Assembly: GCA_951406725.2 (NCBI GenBank)
Contig: OX597826.1
Coordinates: forward strand, 38,192,001-38,256,000
DNA length: 64,000 nucleotides
From: Octopus vulgaris
Lineage: Eukaryota
Direction: 5' to 3'
Position 1 is the stretch's first letter; each line of letters begins with the position of its first letter. The notes beneath the pieces are model-generated. The model was not told the origin of the DNA. It saw only the letters and a list, made by a program, of their open reading frames with translations, and searched no databases. Shown piece after piece: positions 3,563 through 62,830 of the stretch. A program made the translations under genes and the position numbers.

Positions 3563-3817
3563 AGTGCCTTATTATTTAACACACTCACCGGTAAAATTTC
3601 CACTTATTTCTTATTTTTATTTTCTAAAATTTTCGTTGCGTCTTGCAACCTTTTCAACCTTTTCATTAGTCAAAACTATTAAAAGGTTGCAACCTTTTTA
3701 ATAGTTTTGACTAATGAAAAGGTTGAAAAGGTTGCAAGACGCAACGAAAATTTTAGAAAATAAAAATAAGAAATAAGTGGAAATTTTACCGGTGAGTGTG
3801 TTAAATAATAAGGCACT
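3563..3817. repeat. About 255-bp spacerless palindrome (probable inverted PLE pseudo-LTR pair) carrying HHR-like motifs on both strands
   Basis: Arms are exact reverse complements around the AAAAGGTTG|CAACCTTTT centre, apart from one extra T. TTGAAAA G GTTGC-aagac-GCAAC GAAA AT TT tag at 3723-3756. Confidence 0.9.
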
Positions 3818-5169: not shown

Positions 5170-5387
5170 TCATGAATATGAGCATAAGAAAGAGACTTAA
5201 GTTAACAGAGAGAGGGTGAAAAAGAGAATTATGAGAAGAAAGAGAGAGAAAAAAAAGATTTTTTTTTTCCTTTACAAAATTTTCACAAAAATGAAACACA
5301 TCCTGCTAAACATATTCTCTATTCAACAAGAAATAATTAAAACCATATAACATCCGAAACAACAACAATAACAACAGCAACAACGTC

Positions 5388-5419
<32 letters not shown>

Positions 5420-14770: not shown

Positions 14771-15029
14771 ATATAATTTATATTGTATTATACTACAGAT
14801 ATTATAGAGAGAGAAATGCATGTATAGAAAAATATGGTACTCCGTCGGTTAAGGCGACGAGTGTTCCAGTTGATCCGATCAACGGAACAGCCTGCTCGTG
14901 AAATTATCCCGTTGAAACCCCTGTGCGAAACCGGTTAGTAAGATCGAAAATAATGGCTATCTAATACTATACACTTTGAATAACACACACACACAAACAC
15001 ATACGCACCTACATGGATGTGAGTATATA

Positions 15030-30400: not shown

Positions 30401-30603
30401 ACTTCCTCTCCATCATCATCATCATCATCATTGTCATCAATTGTGGAAATATTATAGATAAGTGGTTCTCAAAGTTTACCCCTATCAAGCAAGTCTCAAA
30501 AGTTCAGAGAAGCCCCCCCACCCCAACTCTTTCACTGTAAAATCAAAGACAAGGAATGATGATCAATCGTTGCATTAAATGATGATGATGATGATATATA
30601 TGT

Positions 30604-30750
30604 AATATCCGAAGTGTACATTATTATATATTCATTACGGCCGATGTTACCAATCGGTTTCGCATTAGGTATTCAACGAACTGTTAGTAGCAATACGATT
30701 ATGTAACCCTGAGCTCATCAGAGGTAGCCGATATGGCTTCTGATGAGGAA
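30604..30750 (-). ncRNA. Further copy of the long-stem-II HHR family, with the start of an inverted second arm
   Basis: Minus strand: ggctacct CTGATGA GCTCAGGG..CCTAATGC GAAA CCGATTGG TA acatcggcc. An inverted ggcttCTGATGA follows at about 30735-30746. Confidence 0.65.
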
Positions 30751-45570: not shown

Positions 45571-46364
45571 TAACGCATCCGATTACCAAAATACAAAAGT
45601 GATTCCTAAGATTATCGATTTTGTTGTGTCGGTTGATTGTTTTCATTGGCTCATTACAACCCCACTAGGATGTCCATTGGTAGGAGAATTCACAGTTACA
45701 AGGAAAAAGAAAAATTAATTACACGGAAAATGGAACAAATGGAAATTCATTTACATACGCAGATACACATGTCTACTGAATATTATAGATTTTAACTTTG
45801 GCACAAAACCAGAAATTTTATGCAGAGAGTGTATTGAATTACATCAACCTCAATGTATGACTGGTACTTTATTTTTATCGACTGTCGATAAAGAAGAACT
45901 AAGGTTTTCCTCGGTGGATATCTAACCCAGAACATAAGCATCCGCATCAAAATCCCACAAGATATTTCGTGCGACGCTGCAAAGATTCTGGGACTTCCTA
46001 AATCGATGACTGCTGTTGTTGGTGGTGTAAAATATCGATCACATGACCAGATGGGTTTCAGGTGGTGACCGGTGAGGCTATGGTCACCTGGCTGACCATT
46101 GGAACCGAAGCCAAATACAGGGGATTTTGTCAGAAGTATTTGGAATGAATCCTTCAAGGAAAAGCAGAATCGACCCCAGAACAGGACTTGACTTATCGAC
46201 CCCGAAAGAATGAAAGCTACAGATGCTTCGTTGCTTTTGATAATTGATCAAGATATTTAGTGGAAACGTCTTGAGGGTCGATACAATACCAATAAAAATA
46301 GATTAATAGTTAAGAAAAGATATATAGTCAAGTTATCTCACTCATATCTTGATTGTGTGTGTGT

Positions 46365-46412
<48 letters not shown>

Positions 46413-46443
46413 ACTGAAGTGTACAATATTATAATATCTATTA

Positions 46444-46537
46444 CGGCCGATCTTACCAATCAGTTTCGCACTAGGGGTTTAATGGAATGTTAGATAACAG
46501 CCCGATTATGTAACCCAGCGCTCTTCGGAGATGGCAG
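46444..46537 (-). ncRNA. Type I hammerhead motif with extended stem II (left arm)
   Basis: gccatct CCGAAGA GCGCTGGG..CCTAGTGC GAAA CTGATTGG TA agat(c)ggc. Stem I has 7 bp with a bulge, stem II has 8 bp including G-U pairs. Confidence 0.7.
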
Positions 46538-46581
46538 TTAGGGAGTCCATAATTGAGAAACCATATCTGAGATTCCATAAC

Positions 46582-46665
46582 TGCCATCTCTGAAGAGTAT
46601 AGGGTTACATAATCTAACACTCCTAGTTCAAACTCGTAGTGCGAAACCGATTGTTATCATCAGCT
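46582..46665 (+). ncRNA. Type I hammerhead motif with extended stem II (right arm, more decayed)
   Basis: gccatct CTGAAGA GTATAGGG..CGTAGTGC GAAA CCGATTGT TA. Confidence 0.55.
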
Positions 46666-46750
46666 GTAATGGATATATATAATATTGTATACTTCGAGTA
46701 ACATACCTACACTATTGAGTGCATACTTTTTTCTGACTAAGGGATCCTTA

Positions 46751-46945
<195 letters not shown>

Positions 46946-61924: not shown

Positions 61925-62830
61925 TTGTGGGTTTCCTTTAAAATGAAAATCAGAGAGGCGTCCGTTAGTTTTAGCAAAGAATTGCTTTAGAAAGCAATAG
62001 GATAGAAAATGAGGTGTTAGCGGCGAAAATGGCACCTGAACATTACTTCGACGTCAAACACAGGTGCGGGCGATGAATCATGGAGCCCGGGTGGCGGAGG
62101 CACAAGATAACAAATCTTGAATTCGGTTTGTGATGGACGGTATCGGTCGTGTGCTCTCAGATTGCCGTGTTTCGGCAGCACTTCGCCGACCTCTTATCGA
62201 GGAGTGGCATACTTGAGACAGCGAACTTTGAAGCCTAACTCGATTGTATGTTGCGTCTATCAGACAAGGAGATCGGGTGTTGCGAGAAGCCGATTTCAGA
62301 GGAGGGAGTGGCGGATGTACTAAGCCGCTGTGTAGGATGCAAATCATTTGAAGGTCTGCTCTATGAACTATATTTCCACAGGTCTAACTTGTTTGTTCCG
62401 GTTTTGGCAGCCGTCTACTGCACCTAGCAACATACTGGGAGCATTCCCAATCGTGTGAGCTGAGGATGCGAATAAGGGGGGTGTGATGGAAAATTTCAGG
62501 CTCATAAGATTTTAGGCAAGATATTAGCCAAGGTGCTCTCCAAGAGGCTGGCGCTTGTCATCGATGGTGAAGTCGGGGATGCAGAAAATTGTGCGATCTC
62601 TAATAGATGTATTCATGACAACTTTTACTTCATGCGATACATCGTAGAATTGGTTGGGAATAGATCTGGCTTTGGAGGAGCTCAGTTCAATTTGGACCAG
62701 TCCAAATCATTTGACAAAGTGAACCATCGCTATCTAGTGTCTGTACTAAAAGCTGTCGGTTTCGATTCCGTCTTCAGAAGCTGGATGACCACAATGTATA
62801 GTGGCATCTTCCCTGACGTACATCGAACAA
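61925..62830 (+). pseudogene. Decayed Tx1/L1-clade LINE reverse transcriptase fragment
   Basis: KILAKVLSKRL..IHDN..LDQSKSFDKVNHRYLVSVLKAVGF matches the Tx1 RT motif LDQEKAFDRVDHxYL. Stops and frameshifts upstream. Confidence 0.85.

Follow-up and report, generated by a model that had tools for sequence, protein, structure and literature searches.

The fold-back at 46410-46702 of the window, the 64,000-nt stretch of Octopus vulgaris DNA that was analysed, is very probably a pair of 5′-truncated 3′ ends of a decayed Hydra-clade Penelope-like retroelement (PLE), set head to head in a TG/TA microsatellite and likely derived from one insertion event. The layout itself, inverted PLE ends with a tail on one side, is already known (PMC4209133; PMC3846280; PMC8557442). 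The initial annotation had offered two readings, inverted PLE pseudo-LTR (pLTR) pairs or a small retrozyme-like family cleaving transcripts of either polarity. The first is supported by a variable junction, a one-sided tail, microsatellite flanks and a link to a Hydra-clade ORF; the second is not, since the arms match the 3′ ends of ORF-bearing copies, arrays are absent from the sampled loci, and the ribozymes are damaged and predicted to be paired out.

The fold-back of about 290 bp was borne out by folding, with an MFE of -150.8 kcal/mol (z = -20) that none of 200 shuffles equalled, and its arms are 71-74% alike. Each strand has one type I hammerhead-shaped motif, both facing outwards (left core at 46522-46528 on the minus strand, right core from 46590 on the plus strand). 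Shape, strand and direction were therefore annotated correctly, but the motif quoted combines the best stretches of the two arms, neither of which has an intact hammerhead. The stem II domain described as about 50 nt is 54 nt in the left arm, whereas the right arm has an 11-nt deletion, and the annotated interval covers the fold-back but misses the tail at 46702-46751, through which the full element extends to 46751 and is asymmetric. The window is rich in microsatellites, which swamp the repeat-finder output for its whole length. In Rfam, a hammerhead was absent among the best 150 of 233 window matches, a list crowded by microsatellite matches, and none reached the gathering score in five of five family loci. 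The parts of the element and the other copies in the window are listed in Table 1.

Table 1. Features of the fold-back element and related copies (window coordinates; positions with a sign are profile positions)
Feature	Coordinates	Strand
Left flank, a (TG)n microsatellite that likely belongs to the insertion target	46354..46409	
Left arm, subfamily A: 5′-truncated PLE 3′ end, no tail	46410..46544	-
Left type I hammerhead with stem I and 54-nt stem II	46446..46535	-
Inversion junction, 15 nt given to neither arm by the profile	46545..46559	
Right arm, subfamily A: 5′-truncated PLE 3′ end, from position -28	46560..46701	+
Right hammerhead remnant, core CUGAAGA intact at 46590	46583..46665	+
PLE tail, optional extension of about 60 nt, small deletion here, this side only	46702..46751	+
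(TG)4 then (TA)n microsatellite, right flank	46752..46945	
Second copy, one arm (-15 to +119), core CUGAUGA at 30721	30603..30736	-
Third copy, mid stem II (from +41) to short end, without CUGANGA box	14907..14983	+

The left arm spans profile positions -16 to about +117, counted from C3, and its short end reads TTAA. Its hammerhead has the core CCGAAGA (U4C) at 46528-46522 and GAAA from 46467; stems I and II are as the initial annotation quoted them, stem III is CUGAUUGG with one U-G, and the predicted cut lies between 46454 and 46453. The U4C change is reported to lower activity considerably in vitro (PMC3088659). In the right remnant, stem II opens GUAUAGGG and carries the deletion, stem III reads CCGAUUGU with a mismatch at 46654, and proximal stem I is broken at 46657-46658, where the 3′ strand is UCAUC rather than AGAUC. 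The 15 nt at the junction sit within three imperfect 14-nt repeats and are unmatched in every other pair examined. Among sequencing runs guessed to be RNA, one gave a 148-nt contig identical to 46419-46537, with sparse flank contigs, and three further ones gave nothing specific to the locus; these contigs are not taken as a sign of expression.

Two other stretches had been annotated as related. At 30604-30750, described as a truncated form of the same architecture, there is one arm, with stem I GGCUACCU and of another subfamily than the arms at 46410; the second arm amounts to about 10 candidate nt, the short stretch 30737-30747, which may be the start of an inverted opposite arm. The fragment placed at 14911-14946 does belong to the family but is longer. 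Elsewhere the window holds a near-perfect AT-rich hairpin of 135 nt (3623-3757), unrelated to the hammerhead family; a minus-strand CUGAAGA at 62777 with GAAAC close behind, in a GC-richer, repeat-like stretch and without a workable stem II; and, at about 1800-1930 on the minus strand, a short frame, possibly an exon that would put nearby repeats in introns, whose product would likely have one transmembrane segment with basic residues after it.

Related copies were collected by a DNA search (1489 candidates, 40 scored) and by two pattern samples, both chosen against dimer bias, one anchored on the core (the first 30 of 58 matches, 29 distinct loci), the other on the element end (40 of 40 matches). 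Among 146 distinct arms, 124 cover the ribozyme, of which 116 fall into four subfamilies and 8 are unclassified. Judged from sequence, both arms of the fold-back are 3′ ends of a decayed Hydra-clade PLE, and arms of fold-back pairs cannot be told apart from 3′ ends in copies that bear the ORF. Upstream of the ribozyme, and in the same sense, longer copies hold a decayed ORF with an RT thumb, a CxCX5C linker and an endonuclease whose remnants show CxxC and CxH around E and N; such frames were recognised at many loci by motifs and by similarity to loci L077 and L066. A CxCX5C linker, and CxxC and CxH flanking a conserved E and N, are features of the Hydra clade (PMC8557442). A 250-aa open fragment of the family, from locus L052, which matches the family 3′ UTR, shows 52% identity over 256 aa to L077 and 47% to an intact 717-aa ORF of a sister family. 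In a by-eye comparison, both the protein and the hammerhead of L077 agree with the published Hydra-1_Obim. L077:4069-5505 is a decayed copy of the Hydra-1_Obim family, with a short-stem hammerhead at about 5355-5410.

The clade assignment rests on thumb, linker and endonuclease remnants, RT core motifs being present only in sister families: the 717-aa ORF has RWK and DKT motifs, and the N-terminal RT region of the hammerhead family was not recovered. Reference PLE proteins were compared by eye and through L077 as a stand-in. No complete ORF of the hammerhead family occurs among the recovered loci, Pfam gave nothing significant for nine of nine protein fragments, the intact sister ORF included, and a PDB sequence search with protein fragments was empty. 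In the Atlas, only some members of the clusters retrieved carry GIY-YIG or RVT, which gives no more than a lead. The Naiad clade was dropped, as the endonuclease is C-terminal and hammerheads are present. The hammerhead family is decayed by 10-12%, which blurs breakpoints, and in two runs of unrecorded kind the contig depths, when added up and set against the locus contig, give a rough estimate of some hundreds of copies at 85% identity or above.

Across the family, the hammerhead consists of CUGANGA, GAAA and UH around three helices with stem I open (type I), N7 being the sole core position that changes between subfamilies. The core is kept in 69 of the 124 arms, and the core together with proximal stems in 32, neither window arm among them. 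The three-way junction is the MFE structure for the majority sequences of subfamilies A, C1 and C2 and not for that of B, and ensemble support for it is strong in subfamily A only (0.77-0.89). Compensatory changes between subfamilies occur at three positions, one in stem I (-5/+80) and two in stem II (+10/+57 and +13/+54). In 65 gap-free arms of the 124, the covariation score was 0.197 vs. 0.180 in shuffled alignments, above 498 of 500 shuffles; pairs with two-sided change showed no excess over shuffled ones (326/500), and RNAalifold recovered the base of stem II alone. Support for the putative family ribozyme is moderate, which is what neutral decay of the copies would lead one to expect. In the palindrome transcript, read in either direction, the junction pairs have a probability of 0.00, as they do in a modelled fresh palindrome, and by prediction a read-through RNA folds into a long duplex in which the mirror arm pairs out the ribozyme. 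Since the antisense arm would be transcribed first and the junction pairs have this probability, cleavage of both polarities is not expected.

These properties bear on the reading that the arms form a separate non-autonomous retrozyme-like family, in which short hammerhead RNAs, possibly circular, would be copied by the PLE enzyme and cleave both polarities. Animal retrozymes derive from PLE pLTRs (bioRxiv 10.64898/2026.07.22.740005), and the excess of arm starts 0-45 nt upstream of the core, described below, is what a short ribozyme-bearing template would produce. However, the sampled loci, 146 distinct arms from a sampled genome, contain no head-to-tail arrays of short units, short copies have the same subfamily bases as ORF-bearing ones, and 5′ ends are scattered, with none fixed. 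The retention of core and proximal stems in only 32 arms, to which neither window arm belongs, and the predicted sequestration of the ribozyme by the palindrome also count against this reading, which we consider quite improbable.

A head-to-head partner was found in 10 of the 29 core-anchored loci and in 12 of the 40 end-anchored loci, the majority thus being lone arms. Pooling gave 33 distinct pairs including the one in the window, about half of them from the dimer-biased DNA search. Their core-to-core spacers measure about 39-78 nt, with one of 445, and pair breakpoints vary from +127 to -349; the initial annotation had asked whether the inversion junction is fixed or variable, and with 18 core-to-core lengths in the 24 pairs that have both cores, it is variable. 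A tail of about 60 nt is present on exactly one arm in 31 of the 33 pairs and on both arms in none; in the remaining two it falls below threshold and by eye is partly deleted. Pairs occur in all four subfamilies, and both arms belong to one subfamily in 22 of 23 pairs (shuffle mean 7.3), the exception having an unclassified arm. Sequence difference is 18% between arms of one locus, close to the 21% between loci. Comparison of tail with non-tail arms yielded no diagnostic base (smallest p 0.09 over 126 columns, 12 pairs). On inspection, the flanks of pairs are mostly TA/TG/CA repeats. By eye, no consistent fixed-length TSD was apparent in the 33 pairs, where microsatellite flanks hide short ones. 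In three loci (L120, L148, and L216), the inverted partner is a tail or a piece of tail without a ribozyme.

A MITE, or another fixed non-autonomous TIR unit that moves whole, would have the same outline. Many copies are 270-390 bp long, short ends terminate in TTAA, and two loci, L004 and L006, apparently have one common junction, which could reflect a re-mobilised dimer. However, the junction otherwise varies, the tail is on one side in the 31 pairs noted, pairs arise separately in four subfamilies without arm-specific variants, and they are outnumbered by lone arms and ORF-bearing copies, while TTAA belongs to the element end, which the tail follows on one side. A fixed interior and symmetric termini were not found in the 33 pairs, and the MITE class was rejected as most improbable; the label "MITE-shaped" describes the outline and not the nature of the element.

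The same genome holds a young Hydra-clade PLE family (L066-L073 and L147-L216, e.g., L066:3408-5558) with 2049 exact 45-nt matches, several intact 717-aa frames, 2579-bp tandem units, an optional tail of about 70 nt and, in the copies inspected, a hammerhead whose core is CCGAAGA (U4C) and whose stem II measures 31 nt. As a control for the old family, most of the first 100 places listed for it on contig C1 were examined, and their loci gave 104 arms, including 32 head-to-head pairs. Both families share a zone of frequent 5′ truncation. In the old family, 18 arms in the 40 end-anchored loci start 0-45 nt upstream of the core, the truncation rate per nt at risk being 0.019 there vs. 0.003 within the ribozyme and 0.007-0.010 further upstream. 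In the young family, 26 of the 100 arms starting at or upstream of +38 begin in this zone (18 loci), at 0.0072 per nt vs. 0.0016, 0.00015, 0.00095, and 0.0010 in the other zones. The window arm ends at 46544 and 46560 belong to the same observation. Such a hot zone just upstream of the ribozyme would make short palindromes common. Breakpoints lie 10 nt or less apart in 8 of the 32 young pairs (shuffle mean 2.0, p 1.5e-4), and 15 of 41 minor alleles are common to both arms in 15 long young pairs, vs. 2.9% between loci; together, near-equal breakpoints and common minor alleles argue that both arms come from one template lineage. As a finding, this hot zone, common to the old family and its young sister, appears to be mildly new: no earlier report was found in the literature searched, whose coverage excludes most subscription journals, Repbase and Dfam, and in which Craig et al. 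was the only work found on octopus hammerheads. Three young arms starting at -14 have the same extra GA directly before each, and the lone young arms L188, L208 (both inverted), and L193 (direct) open with 6-13-nt templated pieces of their own 5′ end. Inversion after insertion, at a lone arm that was repaired by the host or that folded back during replication, has a close to negligible probability, since it accounts neither for a tail restricted to one arm in 31 of the 33 pairs nor for the frequency with which near-identical young copies are paired, although some young junctions carry 11-13-nt templated inverted pieces and non-templated bases, which resemble end-joining scars.

If the feature is, as we favour, two PLE 3′ ends from one insertion, the PLE's own endonuclease would have cut the microsatellite, and reverse transcription would have started downstream of the hammerhead at two points, from which the tailed and the short arm, respectively, originated. 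Copying would have stopped upstream of the hammerhead core, within a few tens of bases of it, perhaps by run-off at the RNA 5′ end or by release at the base of stem I. The joining of the two ends would then have needed hardly any microhomology, or none, whether they belonged to two cDNAs of one RNA or to one cDNA folded back. The hammerhead would simply be the pLTR ribozyme normal for the parent element, here with a long stem II, and has decayed at this locus. Two RT start sites define the tail, and start sites with two-strand extension have been shown, for another PLE (PMC11167929). Palindromic junctions have been read as self-priming, and single-cDNA fold-back has been proposed (PMC3846280), while the inverted 5′-truncated copy, the one-sided tail and (TA)n targets are already published (PMC8557442). 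The two-cDNA and fold-back routes both fit, the tailed arm being longer in about half of the near-symmetric young pairs; a fixed fold-back order, with the tailed arm always longer, is not seen in young pairs. Cleaved RNA as the template was also rejected: 4 of 40 end-anchored arms start at +80 to +86 and none of the 40 at +75, the ribozyme cut, which leaves such a template unsupported.

More speculatively, and as a possibility we do not hold to be probable, the palindromes might reflect a strong-stop-like replication step. Copying would begin at two start sites of a single RNA, and the 5′ end of that RNA, or its ribozyme domain under protein protection, would be located 0-45 nt upstream of the core; both cDNAs would end near the same base and be joined head to head, and the hammerhead would act as the enzyme's RNA handle that sets the copy stop, and not mainly as a cutter. 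The role as a handle would fit the young, abundant sister family, which keeps a U4C core.

Among known systems, the closest is the Hydra clade of C-terminal EN+ PLEs, with Hydra-1_Obim as its nearest member (Craig et al., 2021; PMC8557442). Common to both are CxCX5C, CxxC/CxH around E/N, a C-terminal endonuclease, a sense type I hammerhead near the 3′ end, (TA)n flanks and a one-sided tail, and an inverted 5′-truncated copy is listed there for Penelope-13_HM. The window family is nevertheless a separate one, at 52% aa identity to the Hydra-1_Obim-like L077, and a 12-nt motif of its ribozyme is absent from the supplement of that paper in either orientation. Its stem I is extended (about 15 pairs), its tail is about 60 nt vs. 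30-40 in the Hydra clade, and its stem II domain is 54 nt vs. 12-24 nt in the Hydra motifs listed in PMC8557442 File S2; the combination of a 54-nt stem II with the three compensatory changes is mildly new relative to those published motifs, which do not exceed 24 nt. A stem II domain of about 52 nt has a precedent in the hammerheads of Selaginella PLE-X1 (PMC8557442 File S2), a plant, endonuclease-less, rDNA-targeting element unrelated in sequence to the window family (PMC8557442). The dual hammerheads of Schistosoma mansoni likewise lie on opposite strands, 100-700 bp apart, have been read as truncated PLEs, and have a helix II larger than usual (Cervera and de la Pena, 2014; PMC4209133). 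However, those motifs are minimal, without helix III and with a helix II of 7-8 bp (PMC4209133), whereas in the window family helix III consists of 2 bp capped by a tetraloop and helix II is a bulged helix of about 20 bp. Adineta vaga Penelope elements form the same inverted pLTR pairs, with an optional tail on one and junction palindromes (Arkhipova et al., 2013; PMC3846280), but show TSDs of 8-10 bp (PMC3846280), which microsatellite flanks would hide here. Metazoan non-LTR retrozymes also combine a type I hammerhead with a short, non-coding, PLE-related repeat (Cervera and de la Pena, 2020; PMC7229834); they consist of 150-450 bp units repeated head to tail and are expressed as circles (PMC7229834), whereas the window unit is head to head and the end of a coding element.

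In itself, the locus at 46410-46751 is the unremarkable remnant of a dead retroelement. Remnants of this kind look like MITEs and ought to be annotated as Penelope 3′ ends. The hot zone common to the two families, together with near-symmetric, allele-sharing arms and about 2000 near-identical copies, constitutes a natural data set on PLE insertion and inversion. The young-family data set also bears on the role of the pLTR hammerhead, a question left open in PMC11167929 and PMC8557442.
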